A DNA stretch of 29,736 bases from an uncultured Anaerolineales bacterium (GTDB lineage: Bacteria > Chloroflexota > Anaerolineae > Epilineales > JAANWY01): NCBI GenBank assembly GCA_964474265.1, contig CAYYSH010000002.1, forward strand, positions 1 through 29,736, read 5' to 3'. Positions within the stretch are counted from its first letter, which is position 1. Every line of letters begins with the position of its first letter. This document shows positions 3 to 28,957 of this stretch, piece after piece. The translations under genes were made by a program, and so were the position numbers. Below the pieces are notes generated by a model. It worked only from the letters and a program-made list of their open reading frames with translations, had not been told where the DNA came from and did not search any database.

Positions 3-3000
3 CGCGATGCTTACCGCTCGACGTCCTCTCAGCCTGGCGAAGTGACGATGACCGAATCTGTTTTGCGCGCCGGCCACCCCCTGGTGGCCGAAGACGTGTT
101 CAACACACCCTACCTCAGCCCACATATTGCCGCCCAGTTCCCGGCTCGCTCGTTGCTTGGCCTGCCCCTCATCGCCGACGGCCAGAAGCTGGGTGCGGCC
201 CTCATTGCCTTCAACCAGCCTCATCAGTTCACACCGGACGAGATCGCCAGGGGAGAGCAGGCAGCCCGGCAGGTCGCTCTGGCTATCGCCAAAGCCCGTG
301 CGCTGGAGGCAGAACGCCGGCGCGCTGACGAACTGGACGCGCTGCGAGGCATCATCGCCGACATCCTGACAGAACACGAATTGCCGAAATTGCTTCGCAC
401 GCTCCTGGAGCGGGCTGTCGCGCTACTGAATGCGACCGGGGGCGACCTGGGGCTGTACGACGAGGAGGCCCAGGAATTAGTGATTATTGTGAGCCATAAC
501 ATGGGCAAAGACTACGCCGGCACGCGCATGGCGTTGGGTGAGGGCGCGATGGGACAGGTGATGCAGACCGGCAAACCCGTGCTCATCGACGACTACATCA
601 CGTGGGAGCATCGCTCGCCCCAATACGCCGACGGTCCCTGGCACGCCGTCATGGCTGCACCGCTCATATCCGGAGAGCGGCTGATCGGCGCTCTTGGCAT
701 TGTGGACTCTGACCCACAGCGGCGGTTCACCCCCGACGACCTGCACCTGCTGAGTCTCCTGGCCAACCAGGCAGCTATCGTGGTCGAGAAAGCCCGCCTG
801 CTCAAAGAGGCGCAGGTCCGGGCACGCCGGCAGGCAGCCCTGGTTCAACTCAGTGTGGATCTTGCGGCCACCCTTGATGAAGAGGAGATTTGCCATCGCG
901 TGGTGCAAAGGCTGCATGATACACTCGGCTATGCCTACCAGGGCATCTTTCTGGTGGACGAATCCACCGGCGACCGCGTGCTGTGTGCCGGCATTGGCTG
1001 GCCAGATGCTCCCGCCGACTGGCGCATTCCGCCCGGCCAGGGCGTGAGTGAGCGTGCCATCCTGGATGGCCAGCTCCACTACACGCCGGATGTGACGAAG
1101 GAGCCCAACTACGTTCCCGGCCTGAACAGCGGCGCAGAGGTGGACGTGCCAATCTATGCTAGTGGCAAGGTGGTAGGAGTCCTGGTTGTTGAGAGTCAGG
1201 AGCCCAACGCCTTCGGCCCGAATGACTTTGAACTCCTGGAGGCCGTGGCGAACCAGGCCGGCATTGCCATGAGCAACGCCCGGCTGCTGCAGGAATCGCA
1301 GCGCCGGGCCGAAGAAGCAGAGACGCTGCGTCGGGCCGGCGCTGTTGTCGCCGCCGCACTCGAGCAAGACGAGGCCATCCAGCGTATCCTGGAGCAACTC
1401 GAGCTGGTGGTACCGTACGACAGCGCTTCGGTGCAGTTGCTACGCGAGGGGTACGTGGAAATTGTTGGCGGGCGCGGCTGGGCGGATCCAGCGACCGTAG
1501 TCGGGCTGCGTTTTCCGGTGCCCGGGGACAACCCCAACACCGTGGTCATCCAGGAGCGCCGGCCCTACATCCTGAACGACGCGCCGGCTGCTCATGCCCC
1601 CTTCCGCGAAGACCCTCATAGCCACATTCGATCGTGGCTGGGCGTGCCGCTGATCGTGGGAGACCGGGTCATCGGCATGCTGACCGTGGACAGCAAGCAG
1701 CCAGGCCACTTTACACCCGATCACGCCCGGTTGGTCACGGCCTTCGCCAACCAGGTAGCCATCACGTTGGAGAACGCCCGGCTCTTTGCTGAGGTCGAGC
1801 AGCGAGTCATGGAGTTGTCCATCATGCTCGAAACAGCCAGGGTGGTCTCGTCCACACTCCACCTCGAAGAGGTGCTTCCCATCATTGCCCGGCAAATGGC
1901 GCAGGCCATCGGCGTCTCTGGCTGTACTCTCTCGCAGTGGGACCGAGAGGCTGACGCCGTGGTGACGTGGATCGAGTGGCGTAGAGACTGGGGTGAGTAT
2001 AGCAGCGAACCGGGCACTGCTTATTCCTTGAAAGAGTATCCGGCTACCCGGGCGGTCCTTGAGAAACGCCACCCCGTTGTCATCCGGGTTTCAGACCCGG
2101 AGGCCGATCCTGCGGAGGTTGCTCTGATGCGAGAACAGAACATTTTAACCCTACTTATGCTACCGCTTGCCATCGGTGACAGGGTCATCGGCCTGGTCGA
2201 ATTGGACGATGAGGTGAGGGAACGAGAATTTACAAGCGACCAAATCCGTCTATCCCAGGCACTTGCGGATCACGCGGCCATAGCCATTGAGAACGCTCGC
2301 CTGTTCGAGGCAGAACGCAAACATAGCCAGGAGCTTGAAGCGCTGCACGAGGCCAGCCTGCGCCTCACTTCGAAGTTAGAATTGCAATCCGTGCTGGAAG
2401 CTATCCTGGATTACGCACTGAGACTGGCAGCGGCCACTGATGCTCACATCTTCCTCTACGATGGTGAACGGCTTTCCTTCGGCGCTGCCCTGTGGGCGAA
2501 TGGGCAGGAAGAGTCACCGTACATTGAACCCCGGCCCGAGGGGCTGACTTACACCGTAGCTCGCACCGGGAAACGTATCGTGGTGGACAATGTCAACCGT
2601 CACCCCCTGTTCAAAGACTGGCCCTGGGGCGGTGCTATCGCCGGCCTGCCCCTGCGCATTGGTGGTCAGGTGTGTGGAGTGATGAATGTCGCTTTTGACA
2701 AACCGCACACTTTTGAGGAAGACGAACTGCGCGTGCTGGAGCTCCTGGCCGACCAGGCCGCCATTGCCATTCGCAATGCCCAGCTCCATGCCGAAGTTCA
2801 GGCGCTGGCTATCACCGATTCCCTCACCGGCTTCTACAACCGGCGTGGCCTGTTTGAGCTGGGCCGGCGTGAGGTCGAGCGCGCCCGGCGCTTTGGCCGG
2901 CCTCTTTCCGCCCTCATGCTGGATCTGGATCACTTCAAGCTTGTGAATGACACCTATGGCCATCACATCGGCGACCAGGTGCTGGCCGAGCTAGCCGCCT

Positions 3001-3320
3001 GTTGCCGGCAGGTTCTGCGCGACGTGGACCTGTTGGGGCGGTACGGCGGCGAGGAGTTCGTATTTCTCCTGCCCGAAACTGGCGTCGCCGCTGCTGAGCC
3101 GGTGGCCGAAAGACTGCGCCGGCATGTGGAGCGCTCACTCATGAACACAGATCGCGGCCCGATATCCATCACCATCAGCCTGGGGGTCGCTCAGTTAGAC
3201 GAGACCTGCCCTGACCTGGAGACCCTGCTCGAACATGCCGACCAGGCCCTGTACGTCGCCAAGCGATCAGGGCGGAACCAGGCCCGCGTCTGGCAGGCAA
3301 ATGACCAGGACGTCCCGTAA
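3..3320 (+). CDS. Multi-GAF diguanylate cyclase (at least 6 GAF + GGDEF), 5'-partial
   Basis: The frame is open from base 3 (RDAYRSTSSQPGEV...), so the track's GTG at 42 is internal. Six GAF-ending motifs (e.g. LANQAAIVVEKARL, FANQVAITLENARL, LADQAAIAIRNAQL). C-terminal DSLTGFYNRR, LDLDHFKLVNDTYGHHIGD, RDVD I-site (3018-3029), GGEEF A-site (3045-3059), ADQALYVAKRSGRN. Confidence 0.95.
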   Translation, partial: RDAYRSTSSQPGEVTMTESVLRAGHPLVAEDVFNTPYLSPHIAAQFPARSLLGLPLIADGQKLGAALIAFNQPHQFTPDEIARGEQAARQVALAIAKARALEAERRRADELDALRGIIADILTEHELPKLLRTLLERAVALLNATGGDLGLYDEEAQELVIIVSHNMGKDYAGTRMALGEGAMGQVMQTGKPVLIDDYITWEHRSPQYADGPWHAVMAAPLISGERLIGALGIVDSDPQRRFTPDDLHLLSLLANQAAIVVEKARLLKEAQVRARRQAALVQLSVDLAATLDEEEICHRVVQRLHDTLGYAYQGIFLVDESTGDRVLCAGIGWPDAPADWRIPPGQGVSERAILDGQLHYTPDVTKEPNYVPGLNSGAEVDVPIYASGKVVGVLVVESQEPNAFGPNDFELLEAVANQAGIAMSNARLLQESQRRAEEAETLRRAGAVVAAALEQDEAIQRILEQLELVVPYDSASVQLLREGYVEIVGGRGWADPATVVGLRFPVPGDNPNTVVIQERRPYILNDAPAAHAPFREDPHSHIRSWLGVPLIVGDRVIGMLTVDSKQPGHFTPDHARLVTAFANQVAITLENARLFAEVEQRVMELSIMLETARVVSSTLHLEEVLPIIARQMAQAIGVSGCTLSQWDREADAVVTWIEWRRDWGEYSSEPGTAYSLKEYPATRAVLEKRHPVVIRVSDPEADPAEVALMREQNILTLLMLPLAIGDRVIGLVELDDEVREREFTSDQIRLSQALADHAAIAIENARLFEAERKHSQELEALHEASLRLTSKLELQSVLEAILDYALRLAAATDAHIFLYDGERLSFGAALWANGQEESPYIEPRPEGLTYTVARTGKRIVVDNVNRHPLFKDWPWGGAIAGLPLRIGGQVCGVMNVAFDKPHTFEEDELRVLELLADQAAIAIRNAQLHAEVQALAITDSLTGFYNRRGLFELGRREVERARRFGRPLSALMLDLDHFKLVNDTYGHHIGDQVLAELAACCRQVLRDVDLLGRYGGEEFVFLLPETGVAAAEPVAERLRRHVERSLMNTDRGPISITISLGVAQLDETCPDLETLLEHADQALYVAKRSGRNQARVWQANDQDVP

Positions 3321-3342
3321 ACAGTTCGCCTATGAGGAGAAA

Positions 3343-4971
3343 ATGCAACCTGCAAACCACATGAAACTCGACCAATTGCTGGATTCGCGACAACTGGAAC
3401 AATTTCTGCACGCCCTCGTTGAGCTCGTACCAGTGACCCTGCACGTGGAGGGTTCAAACGGCAAGTTGCTGGCACAGGCGCGGCCAACAGGAGTGAGGAG
3501 CAACACTGCGTCCCCGCCTCTGGAGCACCTGCACAGGACAACCCGGGCAGAGGCACGTGTGCCTGTCGAAATCCACGGCGAGCGAATTGGACAGGTCGTC
3601 GCTGTCGCCGCCGATCCCGAACAGGGCATGGCTCCCCTGGTCGAGTCTGCGGCGCGGCTGGTGGCTCACATTGTGGCCGATCAGGCATACAAAGAGCACG
3701 AACTGAACAGCCTGTCAACCGAACTGCTGGATAAGTACGAAGAGATTACCTTGCTGTACGACCTCAGCCAGGCGTTGGGCTCCATCTTTGACATTTCTGC
3801 CCTGTGCAACATTGCGCTGGAGAAAGCCGCGCAGGCTGTGCCGGCTGCCAAGGGCTTCGTGATGCTCAAAGATAAGGACTCACAGAACCTCACCGTGGTG
3901 GCCGCTCGCGTGGACGGGCTGGTGGGGTGGAAAACGCCGGTTGGTGTGGGCATCAGCGGGCGCGTGGCCGAGTCCGGGAAGCCGATTCTATTGCTGGAGG
4001 GCGAACAGCTTCCCTCGCGCAAGCCGGAAGAGCAGGGGCCGCGCGATGCAGTGCTCTCGGTGCCGCTCGTGTTATCTGCTGCCGAGGATGAGGAAGTGCT
4101 GGGCGTGATCACGCTGGCCGGCAAGCCTCGTGGCGAGATGTTCACAGCCGGCGATGCAAAGCTGCTACGAACAATCGCCACGCAACTGGCTATCGCCATC
4201 CACAACAGCCGGCTGCTCCAGGCCCAGCGGGAAGCCGAGCGCGTGCGGCAAGAGATGGAAATTGCGGCCCGCATCCAGCGCAACCTGTTGCCCAATCGGC
4301 CACCGGACCTGCCAGGCATCGAGGTCGCTGGGCGGTGCCTCCCGGCGACCAACGTGGGGGGCGACTACTACGACTACCTGGTGGACCAGGAAGGCCGGCT
4401 AAACCTGATCATCGCCGACGTCTCCGGCCACAACATCGGCGCAGCCCTGATGATGGTCATGGCCCGCAGCATCCTGCGACGCGAGATCGGCGAGGGGAAA
4501 TCGCCGGCCAGCGTCCTGGCCCGCACCAACACCGCTCTGTTACACGATCTGACCAACGCCGAATTGTTCATCACCATGTTCTGCGCACGCTACGACCCCG
4601 CCACCCGTTGTCTGACCTTCGCCAACGGGGGGCACAATCCGCCGTTGCTGCGGCGCTCAAGCGATGCACAGATCGTGGAACTCGACGGAGATGGTATGAT
4701 CGTGGGCATTCTGGAAGATGTGTCGTTTCAAGAGCAAACTATCACGCTGGAGCCAGGCGACCTCCTGCTCCTGTACACCGACGGTATCGTCGAGGCACGC
4801 AACGCCGAGGGTGAGCAGTTCGGTGATGGCCGGCTGCGAAAACTTCTGATCGATGGCGGTGCATTGCCTCCCGACATGCTGGCGGACCGAATTCACGCGG
4901 CTGTTCGTGAGCACAGTCGAGACAGCGCCCAGCAAGACGATGTTACGCTGCTGATTCTGAAAGTCGAGTGA
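3343..4971 (+). CDS. GAF-containing PP2C/SpoIIE (RsbU-like) serine phosphatase, 542 aa
   Basis: GAGGAG SD at 3334-3339 precedes ATG 3343 (the track start at 3235 overlaps the previous gene). PP2C motifs VGGDYYD, IADVSGH, LLYTDGIVEA and QQDDVTL are all intact. A GAF domain and coiled coil lie upstream. Confidence 0.93.
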   Translation: MQPANHMKLDQLLDSRQLEQFLHALVELVPVTLHVEGSNGKLLAQARPTGVRSNTASPPLEHLHRTTRAEARVPVEIHGERIGQVVAVAADPEQGMAPLVESAARLVAHIVADQAYKEHELNSLSTELLDKYEEITLLYDLSQALGSIFDISALCNIALEKAAQAVPAAKGFVMLKDKDSQNLTVVAARVDGLVGWKTPVGVGISGRVAESGKPILLLEGEQLPSRKPEEQGPRDAVLSVPLVLSAAEDEEVLGVITLAGKPRGEMFTAGDAKLLRTIATQLAIAIHNSRLLQAQREAERVRQEMEIAARIQRNLLPNRPPDLPGIEVAGRCLPATNVGGDYYDYLVDQEGRLNLIIADVSGHNIGAALMMVMARSILRREIGEGKSPASVLARTNTALLHDLTNAELFITMFCARYDPATRCLTFANGGHNPPLLRRSSDAQIVELDGDGMIVGILEDVSFQEQTITLEPGDLLLLYTDGIVEARNAEGEQFGDGRLRKLLIDGGALPPDMLADRIHAAVREHSRDSAQQDDVTLLILKVE

Positions 4972-5007
4972 CGGTGATCAGGGAGCAGTGACTTGGGAGG
5001 AATGACG

Positions 5008-5364
5008 ATGGAGAATACGATTCTGGTGGTAGATGATTCACCATTTATGGTGCGCACGCTGAGCTTCATTCTGGAGAAGGCCGGCTATACTGTCGCCACC
5101 GCCGGCAGCGGGACAGAGGCCCTGGCCCAGGCCCGGGCTACACAGCCCCGGCTGATCCTTCTGGATTCGGTGATGCCGGGCATGGATGGCCGCCAGGTGC
5201 TGGAGTCGATCCGGCAAGACCCCTCGCTCCAGAAAGCGCGAGTGGTGATGGTGAGCGGCTCGGACGCCGATGACCTGCCGGAGGCAGACGGCTTCGTCGC
5301 CAAACCGTTCACGCCGGACAAAGTGCTTGAGACAGTCGCCCGCCTGATCGAGGCGGGGAGTTAG
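5008..5364 (+). CDS. Single-domain response regulator (REC), 118 aa
   Basis: ILVVDD acidic pocket, LILLDSVMPGMDG phospho-Asp, VVMVS, FVAKPF. GGAGG SD at 4996-5000 favours ATG 5008. Confidence 0.92.
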   Translation: MENTILVVDDSPFMVRTLSFILEKAGYTVATAGSGTEALAQARATQPRLILLDSVMPGMDGRQVLESIRQDPSLQKARVVMVSGSDADDLPEADGFVAKPFTPDKVLETVARLIEAGS

Positions 5365-5380: not shown

Positions 5381-6484
5381 ATGACCCCCAAACATGTGGA
5401 CTCAGTGAAGCAACAACTGGCGCTGATCAGCACCGTCAGCCGGCAGATTACCTCTATCCTGGATCGCGATGACCTGCTGGATGTTGTGGTCGCGTCGATT
5501 CACGAGATGCTCGGCTACGATGTGGTCCACCTGTTCTTGCTTGACGCCGCCAGCGGGGACCTGGTGTTTCAGGCCGGAACAGCGCCGGCAGGGCCGGCGC
5601 TGAAGGCACAGGCGTTCCGCATTGCCGGGGATCGGCAAAGCATCATCGCCTGGGTGGCCCGTCACGGCGAGCCCTTGCTGGTCAACGACGTCAGCCAGGA
5701 ACCCCGCTATCTGGCCCACGAGTTGCTGCCGGACACCCGCTCCGAGCTGGCGCTGCCGCTCAAAATGGGTGGCCGCGTGCTCGGGGTGCTGGATGTGCAG
5801 AGTGATCAGGTCAACGCGTTCACTGACGACGACCGGTTTGTGCTCGCTACCCTCGCGGATCAGGTGGCCGTTGCTGTGGAGAACGCGCATCTCTTCGACT
5901 CGCTGCGGGAGAAAGAACGTCAACTGGCTTATCAGATCGAGCGGGCCAACGATGCTATCTTCAACATTGATCTGGCCGGCTGTTTTACCTCATTCAACAA
6001 CGCTGCTGAGGAAATCTCGGGCTATCGCCGGCAGGAGGTGTTAGGCCGGCCCTTCACCGATCTGCTGTGTCCCGAGTACCACGCCGAGATGCTGCGCCGG
6101 CTGCGCGACGGCGTGGAGCAACATCCGGGCCAGACGTACGAGGTGGCGTTCTTCCACAAACTGGGCCACCGCGTGCCCATTGAGATCAGCATCACGGCAC
6201 TGCGACGGGATGGCCGGCCAGCCGGCGCCCTGGTCATCGCCCGCGACATCCGGCAGCGCAAACGCCTGGAGCGAGAGATCCTGGACTTCATCTCACAGAT
6301 TTCCCACGACCTGCGCACGCCGCTGGCAACTATCCTCTCCTCCTCTGAGATTTTGCTGAGTTATGACGAGGAGCCCGAAACTCGACGCGAGTTTCTGGAG
6401 ATGATCCACCACGAAGCGCGGCGGCTGGCAGAGATGATCGACGAGATCGTGGACCTGCGCAGCAAGATGGATACAGGAGGTTAG
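5381..6484 (+). CDS. GAF-PAS-HisKA(DHp) protein lacking the HATPase_c domain
   Basis: GAF (...LADQVAVAVENAHLF), PAS (NDAIFNIDLAGCFTSFNNAAEEISGY...ARDI), H-box ISHDLRTPL (His codon 6305-6307). The stop follows directly after the second DHp helix. GGAGG SD at 5370-5374. Confidence 0.88.
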   Translation: MTPKHVDSVKQQLALISTVSRQITSILDRDDLLDVVVASIHEMLGYDVVHLFLLDAASGDLVFQAGTAPAGPALKAQAFRIAGDRQSIIAWVARHGEPLLVNDVSQEPRYLAHELLPDTRSELALPLKMGGRVLGVLDVQSDQVNAFTDDDRFVLATLADQVAVAVENAHLFDSLREKERQLAYQIERANDAIFNIDLAGCFTSFNNAAEEISGYRRQEVLGRPFTDLLCPEYHAEMLRRLRDGVEQHPGQTYEVAFFHKLGHRVPIEISITALRRDGRPAGALVIARDIRQRKRLEREILDFISQISHDLRTPLATILSSSEILLSYDEEPETRREFLEMIHHEARRLAEMIDEIVDLRSKMDTGG

Positions 6485-6560
6485 AGAGGGCCGCTAGACT
6501 GAAGGCCGAGGGATGGTCAGCTATCGTGGAAATAGCTGCAGTACTGGTGAGGAGAAATAC

Positions 6561-6938
6561 ATGTCCAACAGCAAGATTTTAGTCGTTGATGACGAACCAT
6601 TCATCCTGCGCACGCTGACTTTCGTGTTGAAAAAGGAGGGTTATGACATCGCTACGGCTGTGAACGGGGAGGAAGCCCTGGCCCAGATTCGAGCGTCGGA
6701 GCCATCTCTGGTTTTCGTGGATGCCATGATGCCCAAGAAAGACGGCTACCAGGTTGCACAAGAGGTGCGCGACGACCCGACTCTCAAGCGGCAGCCGTAC
6801 ATCATCATGCTGACAGCCCGGGGCCAGGAGTCCGACCGCGAGAAGGCCGAGAGAGTGGGTATCAATGAGTTCATGACCAAACCCTTCAGCCCATCAAAGG
6901 TGGCAGCACGGGTTCGAGAGATTCTGGAACGTACATAA
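6561..6938 (+). CDS. Single-domain response regulator (REC), 125 aa
   Basis: ILVVDDE, LVFVDAMMPKKDG, IIMLTA, FMTKPF. GAGGAG SD upstream of ATG 6561 (the track start at 6513 is probably too early). Confidence 0.93.
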   Translation: MSNSKILVVDDEPFILRTLTFVLKKEGYDIATAVNGEEALAQIRASEPSLVFVDAMMPKKDGYQVAQEVRDDPTLKRQPYIIMLTARGQESDREKAERVGINEFMTKPFSPSKVAARVREILERT

Positions 6939-6952: not shown

Positions 6953-7288
6953 ATGGAGATTCAGGTCGAACGAAACGGAACGGTGGCTGTAGTGGCTGTC
7001 GCCGGCCAGGTAGAGGCAGCAACAGCCCCCCAGCTCAGAGAACAGTTCGATGGCCTGCTCGGTGATGGCGAGCAAAATTTCGTCATCGACCTGTCGGGGG
7101 TGACGTTTATGGACAGTTCCGGCCTGGCCACGTTGGTCCAGCTCTTCAAACGCGTTCGCATTGGCCATGGCGACGTCCGGTTATGCGGCCTGCAACCCGA
7201 AGTGCAACGCATTTTCGAACTGACGCGGCTCGACCGCGTGTTCGATCTCTTCCCGGACCGCGTCGAAGCTGTGGCCAGCTTCCACTGA
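6953..7288 (+). CDS. STAS anti-sigma-factor antagonist (RsbV/SpoIIAA family) #1
   Basis: 111 aa with IDLSGVTFMDSSGL phosphorylation-loop motif. AGGAGG SD. Confidence 0.93.
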   Translation: MEIQVERNGTVAVVAVAGQVEAATAPQLREQFDGLLGDGEQNFVIDLSGVTFMDSSGLATLVQLFKRVRIGHGDVRLCGLQPEVQRIFELTRLDRVFDLFPDRVEAVASFH

Positions 7289-7295: not shown

Positions 7296-7724
7296 ATGGC
7301 CGAAACGACTCACGAAACTTTAGTTATTCACAGCCGGCTGGCTGCAGTCGCCGAGGCGCGCCGCTGGGCATCTGACCACGTTCGTGCAGCCGGGTTCGAC
7401 AACGACGTAGTTTTCGCCGTGGAACTTGCCCTCAGCGAGGCGCTCACCAACGTCATCGAGCATGCCTATGCCGGAGATGAAACGCAAGAGATCCGCCTGT
7501 CCCTGGCTATCGACGATGAGAAACTACGTCTGACGATCCGGGACTTCGGTCGGAAGTTCGACCTGTCGAGCTACCAGTCACCGAACCTGGATGTGCCAGC
7601 GGAGGGAGGTTATGGCGTGTACCTGATCCACCAACTGATGGATGAGGTTAACTACGACACGTCGCCGGCGCAAGGGACACGGCTCAGCCTGGTTAAGTAT
7701 CGAGTAGGAGGAACTCATGCATGA
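7296..7724 (+). CDS. RsbW/SpoIIAB-type anti-sigma serine kinase (HATPase_c_2)
   Basis: N-box ELALSEALTNVIEHAY, G1 IRDFG, G2 EGGYGVYLIHQLMDEV. Adjacent to a STAS gene. Confidence 0.92.
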   Translation: MAETTHETLVIHSRLAAVAEARRWASDHVRAAGFDNDVVFAVELALSEALTNVIEHAYAGDETQEIRLSLAIDDEKLRLTIRDFGRKFDLSSYQSPNLDVPAEGGYGVYLIHQLMDEVNYDTSPAQGTRLSLVKYRVGGTHA

Positions 7725-9018: not shown

Positions 9019-9728
9019 GGATTGGAATACTTCACCAATACAGCCTGCTTAGCTCCGGTAGCGGGGTGTACACAGTGCACGTGACTCAGCGATTGCTGCG
9101 GCGCGGCCACCAGGTATGCCTTGTGTGCCGGGATTTCGAGTTGGATCGCCATATCTTTATCGACGAAGCCTTCATCCACGAAGGGCAGCACACGCAACGG
9201 GTGTTTCGGCGTCGTCGCGAGCCGGCGTGCAGTGCTCACGCGCTACACAGCAAGGTTATGCCTGTGGCCTATCCGCGTGCGGAGACGCCCAATGGCCGGC
9301 TGTTCACGGACCTGACCGACGAGGAGATTCGCGAGTACGTGGCGTATCACGTGGATCGGGTCGCCTACATTGCCCGCCGGCACCGCCTGCAGGTACTCCA
9401 CGCCAACCACGTCGTGCTCATGCCTTACATCGCACTGCAGGTGAAGCGCCAGTTGGGCCTGCCCTACGTGGTAACTGTCCATGGCAGCACGATTGAGTTC
9501 GTGGTGAACCAGGATGAGCGTTATCGGCAGCACGCTGTGGCCGGCCTGCGCGGCGCAGATCGAGTGATTGCGCTAAACCCGGAAGTGCGGGACCGTGTCC
9601 TCCAGATCTGTCCCGACCTTGGAGGCCGGCTGACCAGCATTTCGGTCGGCGTGGACACAAGAGTGTTTCGACCGGTGTACGTGAGACCGCTGGAGGTCAC
9701 CAGCCATGTCGTATCAGCATACGGGTAG
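9015..9728 (+). CDS. GT4 glycosyltransferase, N-terminal Rossmann half
   Basis: SGSGVYTVHVTQRLLRRGHQV, LHANH, PYVVTVHGS, ADRVIA, VGVDTRVFRP, then a stop. ATGA overlap with the pelF stop. Confidence 0.85.
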   Translation: MRIGILHQYSLLSSGSGVYTVHVTQRLLRRGHQVCLVCRDFELDRHIFIDEAFIHEGQHTQRVFRRRREPACSAHALHSKVMPVAYPRAETPNGRLFTDLTDEEIREYVAYHVDRVAYIARRHRLQVLHANHVVLMPYIALQVKRQLGLPYVVTVHGSTIEFVVNQDERYRQHAVAGLRGADRVIALNPEVRDRVLQICPDLGGRLTSISVGVDTRVFRPVYVRPLEVTSHVVSAYG

Positions 9729-11525: not shown

Positions 11526-11570
11526 AGGCCAGCCCAGCAGGTCTCAAGAAACGCAGATGGAGGCGACGTG

Positions 11571-20832: not shown

Positions 20833-22621
20833 GCTTCTGGCAGAGCCGCGGACAGCGGGTGTTCAAGAAGTACCAGTGGATGAAGGACAAGCTGCTGGCG
20901 CTGTGGCGGAGGCCGGCGGGCCTCTGGGGGGCTTCGAGCCCCCGGCAGACCCGGCGTTCACCCCTGACCCGGAAATCCTCGACCCAGATCCACTAGCGGC
21001 GGATAAGGAAGAACTGGTGGACTTCATCCTGGAAACCTGCGGCAGCCCAGTCGATTTCTGGGCCGTAGCAGCAACGCTGGAAAGTCGGGGAATGCGCGAC
21101 GTAGATGCCGAAGAGAAGTTCGGCATCCAACCCCTGGTGCGGTGGGTTGAGCCCAAGTCGGGGTACGTGGTCAAGGGATCCATTATGGTCCTGGCCAAGG
21201 ACATTTATGCCCGCTGTCGGAAGCGCCTGGAGAGTCAGCCTCAGGAGGAAACCCGTGAACCTGAACTGGCCTGGTGGCATAAAATGGCGCGGTTCATCAA
21301 GTTTTACCTGCAGGGCACTCTCTTCGCCCTCCCCATGACCGGGCAGATTATCTCCGTTCTGGCCCTGCGCTACTCCCTCTGGGCCTTTCTCGAATTCACC
21401 GAGGAACGAGCGACGGTGGTTGCCATCGGGACTGTCATGAGCTTCATCGTCACCGGAGGATTCGTACAGGCCATCGGTCGCAAGGGCATGTCCTATTCGG
21501 AGGCAGGGAGCCATATTCTGGCCAAAGAGGTCTGTTATGGGCTGATTAAGCTGGGCACCGGCCTGGTCCTCGCGGTGGCGCTGGCTTTTTACCTGCTGAA
21601 CCTGATTATCCCCTTCTTCACGCAGGAGATGGTCTGGATCAGCCTGATGTACTTCGTGCTGCTGTCAGAGTTGTGGCTGTTCATTTCGATCCTGTATGTG
21701 CTGACGCAGCGTGCAGCCATCCTGTTGAGCACACTGGCCGGCGTGGGTATCGTGCACGTAGTGATGACCTACACCAACTGGGGCATTCACGCCGCTCACG
21801 GGTTGGGCCTGCTGGGCACCAACCTGATTGTTGGGCTCTACGGCTACCACCTGCTGGACAAGGCAGCCAAATCCGTCACAGGTGATCTGAAGGATGCACG
21901 ACTGCCGGCCTGGTCCATCCTGTACTACTCCTTACGACTCTACTTCCTTTATGGCATGTTCTACTTCGGCTATCTCTACCTGGATCGGCTCGTGGGATGG
22001 TCCGCTTCTGAGCAACCGCTGCCGTATATCATATGGTTCCGCACGCCGTATGAGTTGGGGATGGACTGGGCATTGATTTCGCTCATCTTTAGCATCGCGC
22101 TGCTTGAGTACACCATCAACGAGTTTGCCTCGATCATCATTCCGACCCAGAAGCGATTCAGCGCATTTGACATTGAAGGGCACAATCGGTATTTCACCCG
22201 CTTTTATGTGCGGCAACTCATTCTGCTAATCCTCATTGCTATCGCCAGCATCATCGCAACTTACCATGCGGTCACCTGGCTGCGGCGTTTCGAGGAAATC
22301 AAGCTGGTGCGGGACTTCTTCAAGAGCCCGATCACTTTCTTCGTCTACTGGACCGCCGCTGTGGGCTACAACCTGATGGTGATAGGGCTTTTCAATGGCG
22401 TTTTCTTCTTCTCGCTGTCGCGCCCGGTTCCGGTGCTGCGAGCGATTGTGCCGGCCACGGTGGTTAATGCCCTTGTCGGCTACGTGCTCAGTCGGACGAT
22501 CGGCTACCAGTATAGCGCAGTCGGCATGACCATCGGATCACTGGTCTTTGCGCTCCTGGCCACCCGAAACGCGCTACGCATGATGAGCAATCTGGATTAC
22601 TTCTACTACTCGGCGTATTAG
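20822..22621 (+). CDS. PelG-like polysaccharide exporter (multi-TM) with ~160-aa N-terminal soluble extension, 599 aa
   Basis: GGAGAGGG SD upstream of ATG 20822 (the track start at 20552 overlaps pelF#2 by 281 nt). About 12 hydrophobic segments and an aromatic C-terminus LDYFYYSAY. Directly follows a pelF-like gene. The PelG assignment rests on context and topology. Confidence 0.6.
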   Translation: MTAELLAEPRTAGVQEVPVDEGQAAGAVAEAGGPLGGFEPPADPAFTPDPEILDPDPLAADKEELVDFILETCGSPVDFWAVAATLESRGMRDVDAEEKFGIQPLVRWVEPKSGYVVKGSIMVLAKDIYARCRKRLESQPQEETREPELAWWHKMARFIKFYLQGTLFALPMTGQIISVLALRYSLWAFLEFTEERATVVAIGTVMSFIVTGGFVQAIGRKGMSYSEAGSHILAKEVCYGLIKLGTGLVLAVALAFYLLNLIIPFFTQEMVWISLMYFVLLSELWLFISILYVLTQRAAILLSTLAGVGIVHVVMTYTNWGIHAAHGLGLLGTNLIVGLYGYHLLDKAAKSVTGDLKDARLPAWSILYYSLRLYFLYGMFYFGYLYLDRLVGWSASEQPLPYIIWFRTPYELGMDWALISLIFSIALLEYTINEFASIIIPTQKRFSAFDIEGHNRYFTRFYVRQLILLILIAIASIIATYHAVTWLRRFEEIKLVRDFFKSPITFFVYWTAAVGYNLMVIGLFNGVFFFSLSRPVPVLRAIVPATVVNALVGYVLSRTIGYQYSAVGMTIGSLVFALLATRNALRMMSNLDYFYYSAY

Positions 22622-22651: not shown

Positions 22652-23476
22652 ATGCTGCAACAAAGGACAATCGATAACGACCCGGCATTTGAGTCGCTGT
22701 TACGCAAGATACGCCGCGAGCGCGGACTGGATTGCAATCAGTACAAGTCTGCCTTCTTGCAGCGCCGGCTGGCAGTGCGTCTGCGCGCGCGAGGCGTAAA
22801 ATCGTATCGGGCATACACCCGCCTGCTTGATGATGAGGAGTATGATCAACTGTTTGATGCGTTGACCATCAACTTGACCCACTTTTTCCGGGATGCGACC
22901 ACGTTCGTCGCTCTACGAGATCGGGTACTGCGGCCCATGCTGAGTCTCAAGGCACAACAGGGCCGGCGGCAATTCCGGGCATGGAGCGCCGGCTGCGCCA
23001 GCGGGGAGGAGCCTTACTCCCTGGCCATTCTCCTGCACCAGATGCTGGGCGCCCAGATTGAAGAATGGCAAATCCGCATCCTGGCAACAGACCTGGATCA
23101 ACGGAGGCTGGAACAGGCACAGGCCGGCGTCTACGGCCCCTTCAGCTTCCGCGGGACGCAATGGCCGGACATGGATCGTTTTTTCGTGACAACCAGGGAT
23201 GGACACACCGTTGTTCCTCAGGTCAAGCGCCTCGTTCGCTTCCGCCGGCACGACCTCATCGGTGAAGAGCCACCTGGTCGGTTTGACCTGATCTTGTGTC
23301 GCAATGTCCTGATCTATTTTACACGACTGCAGCAAGTGCGGCTGTGCCGTGCTTTCCACAGCGCTCTGATGCCCGATGGCGTCCTCGTTCTGGGCAAGAC
23401 GGAGATATTGCCGGGGGAGGTCGCCGGTCTGTTCGAACCCGTCGATCTGCGAGAGCATATCTATCGCAGCCAATAA
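22652..23476 (+). CDS. cheR: Chemotaxis protein methyltransferase CheR
   Basis: LTINLTHFFRD, RAWSAGCASGEEPYSLA, ILATDLD, FDLILCRNVLIYF, LVLGKTE. Confidence 0.95.
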   Translation: MLQQRTIDNDPAFESLLRKIRRERGLDCNQYKSAFLQRRLAVRLRARGVKSYRAYTRLLDDEEYDQLFDALTINLTHFFRDATTFVALRDRVLRPMLSLKAQQGRRQFRAWSAGCASGEEPYSLAILLHQMLGAQIEEWQIRILATDLDQRRLEQAQAGVYGPFSFRGTQWPDMDRFFVTTRDGHTVVPQVKRLVRFRRHDLIGEEPPGRFDLILCRNVLIYFTRLQQVRLCRAFHSALMPDGVLVLGKTEILPGEVAGLFEPVDLREHIYRSQ

Positions 23477-23543
23477 TGCGTGGTCAGGTGCTAAGCGCGA
23501 GCATGTAAGGAACGGCACCTGACTGGCGTGGAGGAGAGAAACT

Positions 23544-25598
23544 ATGTTCAAACGAATCGTGTCCCGGATTCAATTCCGGTTAACAGTCGCTTTCATCCTG
23601 ATGACTTTCATCCCCCTCCTGGCAACTGGCATCTACAGTGCACAGACGGCCTCCGATGCATTGCGCCGGCAGGCTCTGCAGGCTGAGTCCGGCCGTGTGG
23701 CCAATCTGGCAGCCAACATTCAGGACTTCTTACGCGGTGCCTCAGACGATGCCACCTTCCTGGCCAGGTCCGCAACGTTGGCGCAACTTCTGGAAGCGAT
23801 CAGCGCCGGCGACCCAGCGGCTTTTGCGGAAGCGCGCCGGCAGTTAGCCGACGAATTCATTGCCCTCGCCCGCACACGGCAGACCTACTTCAAGATCCGC
23901 TACATCGATGCCACAGGCCAGGAAGTTGTGGAAGTCGCGGCCGATGGCAACGTCTTCCATGTGAGCGAAGGGGAAGAACTGCAAAATGAGAGCAAAGACG
24001 AGTACTTCATCAACGGCATGAGCCTGGAAGAAGGGCAGGTGTACGCCACTCGTCTGCGGCTGGAGACCCAGGGAGGCATCATCGTCACCCCCCACATCCC
24101 AGGCATTCGGTACGCGGCCCCCGTCTTCTACAACGGTGAACGACGAGGCGTCATCGTCACGAATCTTGACGCACGGGGATTTCTGGACCTCCTGGAGACA
24201 GCAGCCAAGGGAGAGGACGAGCAGTTGTTCCTCGTCGATGCTGAGGGATTCTACCTCTGGCACCCGGACGAGACCAGGCGGTGGGGAGGGCCGGCTGACC
24301 TGGATACAGGCGAGCGCCTGCAACGCGACTTCCCGGACCTGGCCCCGAACCTCTTGAGCGGCCAGGCTGGGGCTGTTCTGGTCGGAGATCAAATGATTGC
24401 CTTTGCCCCCGTAGACTCAACGGCTCAACAAGCTGACCGCTGGACCGTGATAGAAGTGGAGCCCACGGAGCAAGTTCTCGCATCCGTGGGGGAGTTTAGG
24501 AAAGTGTTTCTGCTGCTCACAGCCCTGGCGACGATTCTGGCCATTGGCCTGGGGGCTTATCTGGCGCGGGCCATCACCTGGCCTATCGTGGAACTCAGCC
24601 GCGTCGCCGGCCAGGTCAGCCAGGGTGATCTGACTCCGCAAATCCCTGTCAACAGCAGCGACGAGGTGGGCATTTTATCTCGAGCCTTTGGCAAGATGAC
24701 GTGTCATCTGCGGGACCTGATCGAACAAATCGCCGTCGCATCAAACCGCATGGCGACAGAGGCTGAAGAACTGTCGGCCATGACGGAGGAAATCAATGCC
24801 TCCGCAGGACAGGTCTCTGCCGCAGTCCAGCAGGTCGCCCAGGGCGCTGCCGCCCAGGCTATCCAGGCCGAACAGAGTTCTCGGGCTATTGAGAGCCTGG
24901 CAATGGCCACCGACCAGATCGCGGAGAATGCCCAACAGGTGGAACAGGCCTCGGAACAGGCCCGGGGGATGGTGAACCACCTGGCAGAGATGATGGAGAC
25001 CCTCCAGCGCCGCTCAGAGGACATCAGCAACATGGCGCGCACCGTGAAGCGCTTCGCTGATCAAACCAATCTGCTGGCCCTGAACGCCGCCATCGAAGCC
25101 GCCCGGGCCGGTGAGCACGGCAAGAGCTTCGCAGTCGTGGCCGACGAGGTGCGCCGGCTGGCAGAGAGTTCGCGCCAGACCGTGGAGGAGATCACAGCGC
25201 TGAACGACCAGGTCCAGGCGGAGCTTCAACAGGTCCTGGCTGGCATGCAGGACATCGTCGCTGCGGTGAATCGGGCTGCTGCGCTGGCCCGTCAGAACGC
25301 GGATGCAACAGCCCGACAGCGCAAAGAGTCAAACACCGTGGTGCAGGCAGTCAACGAGATGGCCTCAGTGACTGAGGAACAGGCTGCCGGCGCTGAGGAA
25401 ATGGCCGCGGCTGTTGAGCAGCAGATGGTATCCACGGGCCAACTGGCCGCCGCGACTCAGGAACTATCCAGCATGGCGACCGAGTTGCACGAATTGGTAG
25501 CCCGGTTCCGTCTTTCTCCCGAAGCTGGACCGATGGACACCGTTTCCATCGACGATGTCGCGCCCCCCAATGGCCGGCCACAGACCGTTGAAATCTGA
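23544..25598 (+). CDS. Methyl-accepting chemotaxis protein (TM-dCache-like-TM-HAMP-MA)
   Basis: Two TM segments flank a ~280-aa extracellular region. HAMP ([17 protein letters not shown]...[10 protein letters not shown]). Signalling tip [34 protein letters not shown]. Confidence 0.95.
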
Positions 25599-25672
25599 AG
25601 GGGGCGGAGTCCGAGGCCTGACACATGGCAACCTGGCGGACTGCGCCTGTAGCATTGGGAATGAGGGAGGCT

Positions 25673-26161
25673 ATGCAACACGCTGAGCAACACCTGGAAG
25701 AAGCACTTCACCAGTTCATTATCTTTCGCCTGGACAGGACAGAATTCGCTGTCCCGATTGAACAGGTGACGCGCATCCTGCGCCCGGTGAAATGTACCCG
25801 CGTCCCCCGAGCGCCGGCCTTTTTGGAGGGCATCATCAATCTCCACGGCGATATCGTGCCGGTTATTGATCTGGCAAAACGCCTGCAAATGGCAGCCATA
25901 CCGCGCGATGACGAAGCCCGCATCATTGTGGCTGAAGTAGACAATCAGAGAGTGGGCATGGTGGTTGATTCTGTAACGGAAATCCTATCGCTGCCGCAGG
26001 CGGCCATAGAGCCGCCGCCTGGTATCATTGCCGAAATCAGCGATGTGTACCTGACTGGCGTGGCGGTCCACGACGACCGCCTGTTCGTAATCCTGGACCT
26101 GGACCGTGTGCTTACGACAGAAGAAATGGCGGAGCTGCATGAGCTACAAACTGCAACCTGA
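25673..26161 (+). CDS. cheW: Chemotaxis coupling protein CheW
   Basis: FIIFRL..EFAVPI, TRVPRAPAFLEGIINLHGDIVPVIDL, RVGMVVDSV. Start uncertain (25625, 25661 or 25673; purine-rich GAGGGAGG precedes 25673). Confidence 0.93.
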   Translation: MQHAEQHLEEALHQFIIFRLDRTEFAVPIEQVTRILRPVKCTRVPRAPAFLEGIINLHGDIVPVIDLAKRLQMAAIPRDDEARIIVAEVDNQRVGMVVDSVTEILSLPQAAIEPPPGIIAEISDVYLTGVAVHDDRLFVILDLDRVLTTEEMAELHELQTAT

Positions 26162-26261
26162 AGCGCGGAGTACACCATGCATTGCCTGACAACGATCCAA
26201 AGGCAGTTGCACGTCACACCTCAGCTTCGGTCTTCGCGATCCTCAATCCGGGGGGGTCAGT

Positions 26262-27320
26262 ATGCCCGTTAAGCTGCAGGTGCTGGTAGTAGATGACTCG
26301 GCCTTGATGCGGAAGCTCATCTCAAACCTGCTGACATCGGATCCCGGGATCGAGGTCGTGGATACGGCACAGGATGGCCTGGAAGCTGTCCAGAAAGTGG
26401 CCGATCTTCGCCCAGACGTGGTGACGCTGGACGTGGAGATGCCACGACTCAGTGGGCTGGAGGCCCTCAGCCAGATCATGCAGCACAACCCAACCCCGGT
26501 AGTGATGCTGACCGGCCTCGATAACCCGGACATTGCTCTGGAAGCGCTACAGCGAGGGGCTGTAGACTTCGTCCTCAAGCCATCAGGAACGATCTCCGTC
26601 GATCTGTACAAGATACGCGAGGAATTGATCCACAAAGTCAGACTGGCCCGCCTGGTGAATCTGCGGAAGTTGACCGACCTCCCGGAGTCACACGCTTCTG
26701 CGCTCTCTTCGGTGTCCCCACGCCATGGGAGAAGGCCCGGCCGCCGCATCGTGGTCATCGGCGCGTCAACAGGCGGGCCACGGGCGGTAGAATATGTCCT
26801 GGCCGGCCTGCCTGGCGACCTGCCGATTTCGGTGTTGGTGGTGCAGCACATGCCGGCGGGCTTCACTCGCTCCTTCGCCCAGCGACTGAACAGGCAAAGC
26901 GCTCTGCACGTGGAAGAGGCTGAGGACGACCGCCGGCTGTCTCCGGGCCGTGTTTTTGTCGCCGCCGGCGGCTACCACATGCGTATCCACCCCGGCGGTG
27001 TCATTCGGCTGGACCAGTCCCCCCCGGTCAATGGTCTCCGGCCGGCTGCTGATCTGACGATGATTGACGTGGCCAGAGTATACGGCCCGCGCAGCATCGG
27101 AGTCGTGCTCACCGGGATGGGCTCCGACGGCGCCCAGGGCGCTCAGGCCATAAAGGCTGCCGGCGGCCTCGTCGTTGCCCAGGATCAGGCGACCAGCGTT
27201 GTGTATGGCATGCCCCGTGCTGCGGCCAGAGCCGGCGCTGTGGACCGAATCTTGCCGCTCACCGATATCCCCGCTGCCATCGTGGAGGCAGTAGCCGGGG
27301 AACCGGAACACCAACCATGA
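26262..27320 (+). CDS. cheB: Chemotaxis response regulator protein-glutamate methylesterase CheB
   Basis: N-terminal REC (VVDDS, TLDVEMP, VLKP). Esterase Ser-His-Asp triad in GASTGGP, QHMP, LTGMGSDG. Confidence 0.96.
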   Translation: MPVKLQVLVVDDSALMRKLISNLLTSDPGIEVVDTAQDGLEAVQKVADLRPDVVTLDVEMPRLSGLEALSQIMQHNPTPVVMLTGLDNPDIALEALQRGAVDFVLKPSGTISVDLYKIREELIHKVRLARLVNLRKLTDLPESHASALSSVSPRHGRRPGRRIVVIGASTGGPRAVEYVLAGLPGDLPISVLVVQHMPAGFTRSFAQRLNRQSALHVEEAEDDRRLSPGRVFVAAGGYHMRIHPGGVIRLDQSPPVNGLRPAADLTMIDVARVYGPRSIGVVLTGMGSDGAQGAQAIKAAGGLVVAQDQATSVVYGMPRAAARAGAVDRILPLTDIPAAIVEAVAGEPEHQP

Positions 27321-28957
27321 TCGATCTTACAGAGTACAAGGACCTGTTTGCCAGTGAGGCCCAGGAACACCTGGAGACCATGAACAGCGGGTTGCTCATC
27401 CTGGAACGGAATCCGGAGGACACCCTGACCCTGGAAGCCATCTTTCGAGCAGCCCACTCGCTCAAAGGCATGGCCGCCACCATGGGCTACCAGGACATGG
27501 CCCACGTCGCCCACGCCCTGGAGGATTTGCTGGACGAACTGCGAAGGGGCAATCAGCGACTCACGCCGGCCCTGGCAGATGTGGTGCTTTCCGGCGTCGA
27601 TGCGCTCACAACCCTTCTGGCAGACGCCCTGGCGGGCAGGCCGGCCAGCCTGGACATTGGAACTCTTACCGACAACCTTAAAACCGGAGCAGTCACCGCC
27701 GCTGAAAACAGACATCCACCTGCCGATGTGCCCTCTCGCGACATCACAGCCGTGGTCGAGCCAGATAGGCCCGTGCAATCCACCATTGCGCTCCAGACAC
27801 CGGAACTTCCCCAGACGATCCGCGTCAAAGCCCAAACCCTGGATTCGCTGCTCAACCTGGTGGCGGAACTGGTGATCAGCCGTAGCCGGCTGTGGCGCAT
27901 CCAGCGCAGGCACAACCTGCCGGACCTGGAGGAAGCCCTGGAGGAACACGACCGCTTGCTGACCGACCTGCGAAATGCTGTGCTCCAGGCCCGCATGGTG
28001 CCGGTGGCCCAGGTCTTCAACCGCTTTCCCCGCATGGTTCGCGACCTGTTGAAGGAGCGGGGGAAAGAGGCCGATTTTCGGATCGAGGGGAGCGACATCG
28101 AGTTAGATCGCACGGTCCTGGAACGGGTGACCGACCCACTCATGCACCTGCTACGCAACGCAGTGGATCACGGCATCGAACCGCCAGAGGAACGCCGGCG
28201 AAATGGCAAGGAGCCGCGCGGGACCATCCAGCTCATTGCCCGGCGTGAGCGTGAATCCGCTGTTCTGGAGGTGACCGACGATGGCGCCGGCCTGAACCGG
28301 GAGCAGATCGTGGAAACGGCCATCCGGCGTGGGCTGATCAGCCGCTCCGAGGCCGAAGAACTGCCATACCAGCAAGCACTCATGCTCATTTGTCACCCTG
28401 GCTTCTCTACGGCTGAACGGGTCACTGAGATTTCAGGACGTGGCGTCGGCATGGACGTGGTCCGACGACAGGTAGAGTTGCTCCAGGGGAGCCTTCACAT
28501 CGAGACCCGGCCTGGAGCGGGCACCACCTTCCGCCTGCGTCTCCCACTGACACTGGCTATCACTCAGGCTTTGCTGGTGGGGGTGGGAGGCGAGACCTAT
28601 GCCATCCCCCTGAGCCAGGTCGAGCGCACGCTGGAGATCGAGCCCGGACAGGTGAGGCGGGTTCAACGGCGGCAGGTGCTCGCCCGCGGGAATTTGCACG
28701 CTCTACCACTGGTTGACCTGCGAGAGGTGCTTGGTGTACCTGGCGACGCTCCGGGGCGCGCCGGCCCCGGCTATGCCGTAGTCGTAGGTGAGAACCGCGA
28801 CCGGATCGGGTTGGTGGCCGACAATCTTCTGTATCAGGAAGAGATCGTCATTCGCCCGCTGCCGCAAGCCATTGGAAGTATCCCCGGCCTGGCTGGCGCT
28901 ACCATCCTCGGTGAGGGCCAGGTGGTTCTCGTTCTGGACGCCCCGAATTTGGTGTAA
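27317..28957 (+). CDS. cheA: Chemotaxis histidine kinase CheA (Hpt, dimerisation, HATPase, CheW-like; no obvious P2 domain)
   Basis: FRAAHSLKGMA, IRVKAQTLDSLLNLVAELVI, HLLRNAVDHGIE, DDGAGL, GRGVGMDVV, LPLTLAI, GATILGEGQVVLVLD. ATGA overlap with the cheB stop. Confidence 0.96.
   Translation: MIDLTEYKDLFASEAQEHLETMNSGLLILERNPEDTLTLEAIFRAAHSLKGMAATMGYQDMAHVAHALEDLLDELRRGNQRLTPALADVVLSGVDALTTLLADALAGRPASLDIGTLTDNLKTGAVTAAENRHPPADVPSRDITAVVEPDRPVQSTIALQTPELPQTIRVKAQTLDSLLNLVAELVISRSRLWRIQRRHNLPDLEEALEEHDRLLTDLRNAVLQARMVPVAQVFNRFPRMVRDLLKERGKEADFRIEGSDIELDRTVLERVTDPLMHLLRNAVDHGIEPPEERRRNGKEPRGTIQLIARRERESAVLEVTDDGAGLNREQIVETAIRRGLISRSEAEELPYQQALMLICHPGFSTAERVTEISGRGVGMDVVRRQVELLQGSLHIETRPGAGTTFRLRLPLTLAITQALLVGVGGETYAIPLSQVERTLEIEPGQVRRVQRRQVLARGNLHALPLVDLREVLGVPGDAPGRAGPGYAVVVGENRDRIGLVADNLLYQEEIVIRPLPQAIGSIPGLAGATILGEGQVVLVLDAPNLV

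Follow-up and report, generated by a model that had tools for sequence, protein, structure and literature searches.

We analyzed the 29,736-nt contig CAYYSH010000002.1 of an uncultured Anaerolineales bacterium (assembly GCA_964474265.1), hereafter the window, which makes up all of contig C2 of a hot-spring Anaerolineae metagenome-assembled genome (MAG; 2.57 Mb, 75% complete) and carries a long locus of polysaccharide and signalling genes. Through an open reading frame (ORF) listing together with Pfam and NCBIfam scans, 24 + strand ORFs were found to occupy positions 3–29734, of which the first (g01) and the last (g24) are truncated by the contig ends. After the starts of g02 and g18 were refined to 3343 and 20822, respectively, the spacers between the 24 ORFs ranged from −23 to +100 nt with six overlaps, and the base composition was even along the window. 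The single-strand run with short gaps and overlaps, which an earlier note on this DNA had described, was thereby borne out; the domain calls of that note, from the six-GAF GGDEF protein through to CheA, all hold in the family scans, and signalling genes (g14 and g15) do lie among the polysaccharide genes. Searching of sequencing runs found near-identical DNA in a hot-spring metagenome and partially matching DNA in a microbial-mat metagenome, all matching runs being DNA. As read from its sequence, the locus is probably a Pel-type, synthase-dependent exopolysaccharide (EPS) machinery, belonging to a monoderm filamentous Chloroflexota bacterium from a hot spring, which works without PelD and PelE and is equipped with a phospho-switch and an HD-GYP/STAS module. 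Its genes are as follows.

g01, 3..3320, + strand: diguanylate cyclase with six GAF domains and a GGDEF domain, 5′ end cut (Pfam GAF six times; GGDEF 149 bits)
g02, 3343..4971, + strand: GAF-PP2C serine phosphatase of the SpoIIE/RsbU type (SpoIIE 196 bits)
g03, 4993..5364, + strand: single-domain, CheY-like receiver (REC), Asp and Lys kept (Response_reg 80 bits)
g04, 5381..6484, + strand: GAF-PAS-HisKA protein without ATPase domain, H-box HDLRT intact
g05, 6513..6938, + strand: single-domain receiver, corresponding to the REC that is conserved in the module (Response_reg 97 bits)
g06, 6953..7288, + strand: STAS protein with a DSSG phospho-serine motif (STAS 89 bits)
g07, 7296..7724, + strand: RsbW-type GHKL serine kinase, overlapping g08 by 8 nt (HATPase_c_2 111 bits)
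g08, 7717..9018, + strand: PelF paralogue 1 (PelF1), a GT4 glycosyltransferase with DUF3492 (PF11997) (NF038011 PelF 328 bits, cut-off 100)
g09 and g10, 9015..10599, + strand: GT4 glycosyltransferase in two genes, N-domain 9015–9728 and C-domain 9706–10599
g11, 10698..11525, + strand: sugar-1-phosphate uridylyltransferase resembling the GlmU N-domain, without acetyltransferase domain (NF010934 284 bits, profile positions 2–235 of 447)
g12, 11568..13850, + strand: PelA_DA-type de-N-acetylase (DUF2194), likely start near 11694 (PF09960 277 bits)
g13, 13866..15863, + strand: 665-aa polytopic membrane protein of GT-C fold with a C-terminal soluble domain
g14, 15860..17731, + strand: GAF-HD-GYP-family protein with a conserved seven-cysteine tail (HD_5 81 bits; 4mcw E 3.7e-19)
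g15, 17830..18171, + strand: STAS protein (STAS 80 bits)
g16, 18208..18942, + strand: sugar-1-phosphate nucleotidylyltransferase, RmlA/AglF-like (NTP_transferase 132 bits)
g17, 18955..20832, + strand: PelF paralogue 2 (PelF2), 625 aa with a C-terminal extension (NF038011 127 bits, cut-off 100)
g18, 20822..22621, + strand: divergent PelG-family membrane protein of MOP fold with an extra N-terminal cytoplasmic domain
g19–g23, 22652..28957, + strand: CheR, a dCache-HAMP methyl-accepting chemotaxis protein (MCP), CheW, CheB and a CheA without P2 domain

Two genes of the polysaccharide core, g08 and g17, each encode a cytoplasmic GT4 glycosyltransferase preceded by the DUF3492 N-terminal region, the combination that defines PelF. 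Their presumed partner, g18, was modelled by AlphaFold2 (AF2; predicted local distance difference test score, pLDDT, 89) as a Wzx/MATE/MurJ-type MOP fold (WzxE, MATE and MurJ) with a small extra cytoplasmic domain in front. Among 48 members sampled from its family of 537 representative clusters, 13 match PF16933, the PelG family of 12-TM MOP-superfamily membrane proteins (best E 1e-10), and the orthologue in L019 carries a weak PelG annotation, so the PelG assignment is supported at the level of family and predicted fold. Profile alignment of the g18 family with one Bacillus PelG by hhalign gave a probability of 4.8%, which, with a single-sequence template, is uninformative and was not used against homology. 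In L018, a related metagenome contig, PelF2 and the PelG-like protein are fused in frame (17575–21336, 1253 aa), which supports a physical PelF-PelG synthase complex.

The de-N-acetylase g12 has a single N-terminal transmembrane (TM) helix at residues 74–95. DUF2194 is part of the Gram-positive PelA variant PelA_DA (PMC7890745), and g12 aligned with the Bacillus cereus PelA_DA structure (PDB 9zau) at E 1.7e-50. Compared with the catalytic motifs of that enzyme (PMC13254593), the DD of MT1, HxxxH, the proline of MT3, the base-activating arginine and HPDD were all aligned and kept. We therefore read g12 as a predicted membrane-anchored PelA_DA-type de-N-acetylase whose catalytic motifs are intact. 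Tandem pairs of DUF2194 (PelA_DA-like) genes were also observed in the Chloroflexota cassettes L019, L027, L030, L034–L036 and L040. Indirect pointers to the product come from the GlmU-N-like enzyme and from the conservation of the deacetylase site; it might be a partially de-N-acetylated alpha-1,4 polymer of N-acetylgalactosamine and galactosamine (GalNAc/GalN). The GT4 glycosyltransferase of g09 and g10 is split between its two Rossmann domains; it is split in the relative G003, of another genus, with a different frame offset (L014, 920–2517), and is unsplit as a single 554-aa ORF in the distant Chloroflexota MAG locus L029 (2568–4229). The split is best read as a genuine, recurrent gene fission and not as a sequencing frameshift.

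No Pfam or NCBIfam match was obtained for g13, even at E 10. Its AF2 model (pLDDT 86) resembles AglB (Z 20.7), OST-B (19.9), ArnT (18.2) and PglB (17.1), as well as PMT and AftA, with a Foldseek probability of 1.0, and is that of a predicted GT-C fold with an extracytoplasmic C-terminal domain. Of its acidic residues, D67 alone is kept almost without exception across 19 homologues, and no DxD motif could be made out. Across loci the gene travels with those of PelF2 and the PelG-like protein, of which the GT-C protein appears to be an obligate companion that may serve in decoration, ligation or as a scaffold. The ~1290-aa DUF2194 proteins of Flavobacterium were considered as DUF2194::GT-C fusions and rejected, since BLASTP of one of them (P0089) against g13 found no match. 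A 593-aa ORF at 13847–15628, lying over g13 in another frame, matches no family, and relatives conserve the frame of g13; it is most likely a high-GC shadow ORF.

The domain scans found none of PelD, PelE, PelB and PelC among the 24 window ORFs, as the earlier note had stated in calling the locus non-canonical. For PelD, the c-di-GMP receptor with TM, GAF and degenerate GGDEF regions, a search of the 75%-complete genome with PelD_GGDEF (PF16963) gave nothing above the E 0.3 level; for PelE, a small inner-membrane protein with TM and tetratricopeptide repeat (TPR) regions, no TPR or PelE-like ORF is among the 24. In diderm phyla, a multi-TPR protein of ~650 aa was observed after the DUF2194 gene (L043, 6138–8138; L053, 11722–13665), which may be a PelB/PelE-like part for export or scaffolding without counterpart in the monoderm Chloroflexota version.

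The window also encodes a complete partner-switch set: a PP2C phosphatase, STAS proteins with a phosphorylatable serine and a GHKL serine kinase. The motifs of the switch and its inputs are intact, namely the DSSG serines, the receiver Asp and Lys, the PP2C Asp motifs, the N and G boxes of RsbW and the Hpt histidine of CheA. The longest ORF of the phosphatase g02 runs from 3235, its likely start is 3343 and relatives align from residue 41. No sigma factor domain was found in the 24 window ORFs, as had been noted earlier, nor in related loci. The cyclase g01 retains GGEEF and an RxxD I-site, and its orthologues lie 5′ of the PP2C gene in the relatives G002 and G003. Because the L017 orthologue (within 1–5101; 1569 aa) opens with a sensor region of 7TM type (HisKA_7TM), and g01 is cut at the contig start, g01 is probably a membrane-bound sensor cyclase; a 2217-aa paralogue precedes the orthologue in L017.

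To evaluate the conservation of this gene set, GTDB genomes were scanned with a DUF2194 profile, and the 79 loci obtained were annotated with the window proteins. In the same family, gene order is kept across genera at 63–85% protein identity (G002/L017 and G003), running GGDEF, PP2C, REC(s), STAS, RsbW, PelF1, ..., DUF2194, GT-C, HD-GYP, STAS, PelF2, PelG-like. The cassette of two PelF, PelG-like, GT-C and DUF2194 genes recurs in many phyla, and in Calditrichota, Bacteroidota, Kryptonia and KSB1 the order is PelF2, PelG-like, GT-C, GAF-PP2C, REC, GAF-HD-GYP, STAS, DUF2194, the receiver between PP2C and HD-GYP being the orthologue of g05. The regulators thus occur in two layouts, either ahead of RsbW-PelF1 or between the GT-C gene and DUF2194, and the window family has a rearranged form of the first. 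RsbW and PelF1 are adjacent in L017, L024, L029, L036, L048 and many metagenome loci, and an RsbW-type kinase often, not always, accompanies the PP2C/REC/HD-GYP/STAS module. DUF2194 alone was rejected as a cassette marker: the 985-kb contig of P0049 carries it amid unrelated genes, and many loci of Alpha- and Gammaproteobacteria have DUF2194 without PelF2, PelG-like or GT-C genes. The cassette proteins of L049, from a MAG labelled Actinomycetota, are almost identical to those of Calditrichota L043, which suggests misbinning or recent transfer, and the two were counted as one lineage.

In a reciprocal scan, metagenome contigs were searched with signature peptides of the HD-GYP family, giving 70 loci with a strong match. 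In 60 of the 62 of these that could be judged, a STAS domain was next to the HD-GYP gene (48) or fused to its product (12). PelF or DUF2194 genes lay at most 4 kb downstream of the HD-GYP gene in all 28 of 28 metagenome loci. For a GAF-PP2C gene the count was 22 of 28 at up to 1.5 kb upstream, and four more loci had one at a greater distance on that side. This linkage argues that the GAF-HD-GYP family is a dedicated component of the Pel-like cassette.

Within this family, the metal ligands of g14 (H388, H420-D421, H440 and H464-H465) vary little or not at all in the family alignment A4, in which the last ligand has changed from Asp to a near-invariant Glu493. The GYP motif reads G[FY]P, HDxGK has become a family-wide HDVGMCG, and RPY(K/R) is not kept. 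That these deviations are conserved across phyla argues against decay and for selected features. A module of seven cysteines follows the HD-GYP domain (window 17516–17653; A4 columns ~585–645), with the pattern CW..C..C...CW...C..HGD..C..CF; its conservation reaches from Chloroflexota to KSB1 and Kryptonia, three shorter homologues lack it, in fused proteins it is located between HD-GYP and STAS, and it might serve as an Fe-S, Zn or redox input.

The neighbouring STAS protein, g15, is the likely partner of g14. GAF, HD_5 and STAS form a single polypeptide in three lineages (KSB1, Cytophagia and Kryptonia), and g15 is the orthologue of the fused STAS domain, with 41% identity and an invariant DS motif (alignment A5); because of these fusions in other phyla, the pairing was likely beforehand. 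Complex prediction for g14 and g15 scored 0.39, with 0.00 for the best control, and placed the interface at the GAF domain of g14 and the DSSG loop of STAS. Among solved complexes, 58 of 80 scored at least this high, as did 2 of 110 mismatched pairs; the value lies in a weak band, and the model lends the pairing weak support.

The Che block g19–g23 has a complete core of MCP, CheW and CheA with CheR/CheB adaptation, CheA comprising Hpt, dimerisation, ATPase and CheW domains without P2. It has no CheY of its own, and the single-domain receivers g03 and g05 are its putative receivers. Linkage of Che genes to the cassette was seen in L017, L018, L026, L040, L121 and L179; it is confined to Chloroflexota-type loci and takes differing arrangements. 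CheR-MCP lies 3′ of the PelG-like gene in the window, L017 and L018; G002 continues on another contig with CheW, CheB and CheA, then unrelated genes; MCP-CheW directly follows DUF2194 in G004; CheB-CheA is directly 5′ of PelF2 in L040; and a P2-less CheA is directly 5′ of PP2C-REC-HD-GYP-STAS-RsbW-PelF1 in L121. In L107 (G004:C291, 416–3260), each of the orthologues of cheB and cheA is spread over two overlapping frames, which points to frameshifts or assembly errors.

Other parts of the locus also vary among same-family relatives: g03, g04, the split GT4 and both NTP transferases are absent in one or the other, g04 being absent in G002 and G003 and g03 in G003. The ATPase-less GAF-PAS-HisKA architecture is found between PP2C and REC in L131 and L179. 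Variable add-ons are g04, the dimerisation and histidine phosphotransfer (DHp) protein that lacks an ATPase domain, as well as the GGDEF cyclase and the Che genes; the system reads as a conserved core with lineage-specific inputs.

Among described systems, the Gram-positive pelDEA_DAFG of B. cereus ATCC 10987 is the closest (PMC7112168, PMC7890745, PMC13254593). The two share a PelF GT4 with DUF3492, a PelG-family MOP protein, a TM-anchored DUF2194/CE-domain de-N-acetylase with identical catalytic motifs, and a monoderm host without outer-membrane export parts. Unlike it, the window lacks PelD and PelE, adds a second PelF and an obligatory GT-C-fold protein, has a PelG too divergent for PF16933 with an extra N-terminal domain, and contains a built-in phospho-switch and HD-GYP module. 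A Bacillus locus used for comparison had the canonical order, with two unannotated ORFs in the PelD/PelE positions followed by DUF2194, PelF, PelG and GH114.

On the regulatory side, the Pseudomonas Wsp chemosensory pathway, HsbR/HsbA/HsbD and SiaABCD are cases in which a Che-type array or a partner switch controls cyclic di-GMP (c-di-GMP) and thereby Pel or Psl; they act on GGDEF cyclases and via PelD, and have no linkage to the pel operon. In the window, by contrast, an HD-GYP protein is the partner, there is no PelD, and a single locus holds every part. SiaC-SiaD is a sigma-less partner switch in EPS control (PMC8457831). In Vibrio fischeri syp, a sigma-less partner switch of SypA (STAS) and SypE (RsbW-kinase-REC-PP2C) lies inside the EPS locus, where the receiver governs the kinase/phosphatase balance on the STAS serine and control is post-transcriptional (PMC4517449, PMC10120452). 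The window likewise encodes such a switch within an EPS locus, but its kinase, receiver and PP2C are separate proteins, its polysaccharide is of Pel type and not Syp, and its STAS is paired or fused with HD-GYP. In Anabaena HenR/All4160/Alr3423, a STAS domain whose phosphorylation is controlled by a PP2C and a Ser kinase acts directly on a polysaccharide biosynthetic protein (PMC13555669). Both systems combine PP2C, Ser kinase and STAS, and in both a domain fusion reveals the STAS target, which is a glycosyltransferase there and a fused or adjacent GAF-HD-GYP here.

The earlier note's suggestion that the combination is undescribed was overstated, since partner switches in EPS loci are known (SypA/SypE, PMC4517449; HenR/All4160, PMC13555669). 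Our literature search found no paper joining PelF/PelG with STAS or SpoIIE, and neither Chloroflexota nor anti-sigma or embedded HD-GYP variants come up in the key Pel surveys. The PelD-less Pel variant is real and conserved, and apparently undescribed; what is new is the evidence for an HD-GYP protein as a dedicated STAS partner, and the Che, DHp and cyclase add-ons in Anaerolineae. Further claims of the note fared unevenly. Coupling of signalling to EPS genes stands for PP2C, REC, HD-GYP, STAS and RsbW, which accompany the cassette across phyla, with HD-GYP-STAS fused in three lineages; Che coupling stands in several Chloroflexota lineages in differing arrangements, though not in all (G003). 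The gene-neighbourhood check proposed there linked the signalling module to the cassette across phyla, but also turned up distant cassettes without any signalling genes. The idea of 23 genes as one fixed system found no support, as the DHp protein, one receiver, the split GT4 and the NTP transferases come and go and no Che genes follow the cassette in G003. The 23 genes form a mosaic in which the coupling itself is real, and the order proposed there, from MCP/CheA via REC, STAS and c-di-GMP to polymer, remains plausible.

In the mechanism that we propose, PelF1/PelF2 would act at the PelG-like protein to polymerise precursors of the UDP-HexNAc type, which the GlmU-N-like and RmlA-like enzymes would help to supply. 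Outside the membrane, g12 would remove part of the N-acetyl groups, and the GT-C protein would modify or anchor the polymer. The STAS protein would be phosphorylated by the RsbW kinase and dephosphorylated by the PP2C phosphatase, which may be tuned by its own GAF domain and by a phosphorylated receiver. The phospho-serine face of STAS would dock on the GAF domain of the HD-GYP protein, which in turn would hydrolyse or sense c-di-GMP in place of PelD. In the window family, a dedicated array of MCP, CheW and CheA, adapted by CheR/CheB, would feed the receiver(s), g04 with its missing ATPase domain could act as a phosphatase or phosphotransferase, and the multi-GAF cyclase g01 would supply c-di-GMP. 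A bolder version, which we regard as rather doubtful, would make GAF-HD-GYP(-STAS) a new kind of effector replacing PelD, reading c-di-GMP, redox via the seven-cysteine tail and the phospho-serine switch, and gating the PelF1/PelF2/PelG-like/GT-C synthase, with a chemoreceptor array driving the gate in filamentous Chloroflexota.

Several observations weigh against our reading of the locus as a PelD-less Pel machinery with its own switch. No signalling genes lie near any of the Rubricoccaceae and Flavobacteriia cassettes or near several of those of Anaerolineae, and fused HD-GYP-STAS loci are often without a kinase gene nearby. With the departures from HDxGK and RPY, neither activity nor c-di-GMP binding can be read from the sequence of g14, and no c-di-GMP receptor was identified; its predicted complex with g15 scores in the weak band only. 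A synthase-dependent pathway does not account for a GT-C protein. g18 itself matched neither PF16933, even at E 10, nor any other Pfam or NCBIfam family, and the label PelG-like given to it in the earlier note holds through family and fold, not through a direct match. G003, at 91% completeness, has no Che genes 3′ of its cassette and no CheA orthologue was found in it. Three spacers of ~100 nt interrupt the putatively co-transcribed run.

Some of these points would fit a reading in which the Pel-like genes and PP2C/REC/HD-GYP/STAS/RsbW belong together and the Che block, perhaps together with the GGDEF protein, forms an adjacent system that serves some other output (a type IV pilus or gliding, for example), on the same strand and perhaps in the same transcript. 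Che is absent beside the cassette in G003 and most loci outside Chloroflexota, PilB/PilT-family ATPases are encoded elsewhere in the genome, the relative G002 has a second CheA, and the candidate CheY-like receivers are >15 kb from cheA in the window. Yet Che adjoins the cassette in at least four arrangements, with CheA directly 5′ of PP2C-REC in L121; the window CheW domains are the only ones found in the 75%-complete genome, where no flagellin was found either; and the block lacks its own CheY. We consider such a separate output improbable. That unrelated signalling and sugar genes merely happen to run in one direction in a signalling-rich genome is highly improbable: GAF/PAS/REC proteins abound in Chloroflexota, and long ORFs are common in genomes of high GC content, but the comparative data contradict this, with synteny at the protein identities given above across genera, an order that recurs across phyla, and the domain fusions HD-GYP-STAS and PelF2::PelG-like.

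The nature of the product also has to be weighed. A cell-bound glycan or glycoconjugate (sheath, wall polymer, protein-linked glycan or motility slime), ligated on the outer face by the GT-C protein in the manner of an oligosaccharyltransferase (OST) or ArnT, with Che input steering gliding or aggregation and not matrix, is unlikely in our judgement. The fold of g13, nearest to the AglB/PglB/STT3 oligosaccharyltransferases and ArnT, speaks for it, as do the obligate company of the GT-C gene with PelF2 and PelG-like, which canonical Pel lacks, the origin of the host from a hot-spring mat, and the precedent of Nostoc, where chemotaxis-like and partner-switching systems control hormogonium motility and polysaccharide (PMC13555669, PMC6495340). 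However, domain scans of the window turned up neither a lipid-carrier priming transferase nor Wzy nor a polyprenyl-phosphate GT2; deacetylation of the PelA_DA type is characteristic of secreted Pel (PMC13254593); and no residue of the GT-C protein could be assigned as its catalytic acid.

Beyond the genes themselves, window scans found promoter- and terminator-like sites at or below the shuffled expectation, with none inside a spacer, and showed no operon boundaries; the Rfam scan of the window found no riboswitch or other RNA family, and its DNA repeat search found no meaningful repeats. A very stable hairpin at 11699–11764, with 28-nt arms, −53.5 kcal/mol, z −5.9 against shuffles and no T-run, lies just 3′ of the probable start of g12 (ATG at 11694), and unrelated hairpins were seen in the spacer 5′ of the DUF2194 gene in L017 (9838–9885 and 9893–9946), L023 and L025. 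The hairpin by the g12 start may be a site of mRNA processing, stability or translation control. The last ORF follows the Che block:

g24, 28976..29734, + strand: PAS / winged-helix (Trans_reg_C) protein, 3′ end cut

Because a sigma-70-like site (10/12) is located at 28993–29022 within its nominal 5′ end, its PAS match starts only at residue 39, and no orthologue follows cheA in G002, g24 probably has a later true start and is a separate unit outside the system.

How Pel-type synthases are switched on without PelD is a question posed by the Pel literature for streptococci (PMC7890745). The cassette offers a testable and widespread answer for PelD-less Pel, namely a serine phospho-switch tied by gene order and fusion to an HD-GYP-family protein in the synthase locus, and it adds to a synthase-dependent pathway a GT-C-fold protein that is outside the current Pel model. 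Mat-forming Chloroflexota are ecologically important and barely tractable, and gene-level hypotheses on their aggregation are scarce; here a chemoreceptor array would be tied to matrix or slime production. If an HD-GYP effector driven by chemoreceptors did gate the synthase, polymer secretion would be a chemotaxis-like output, serving directed aggregation or gliding in mats.

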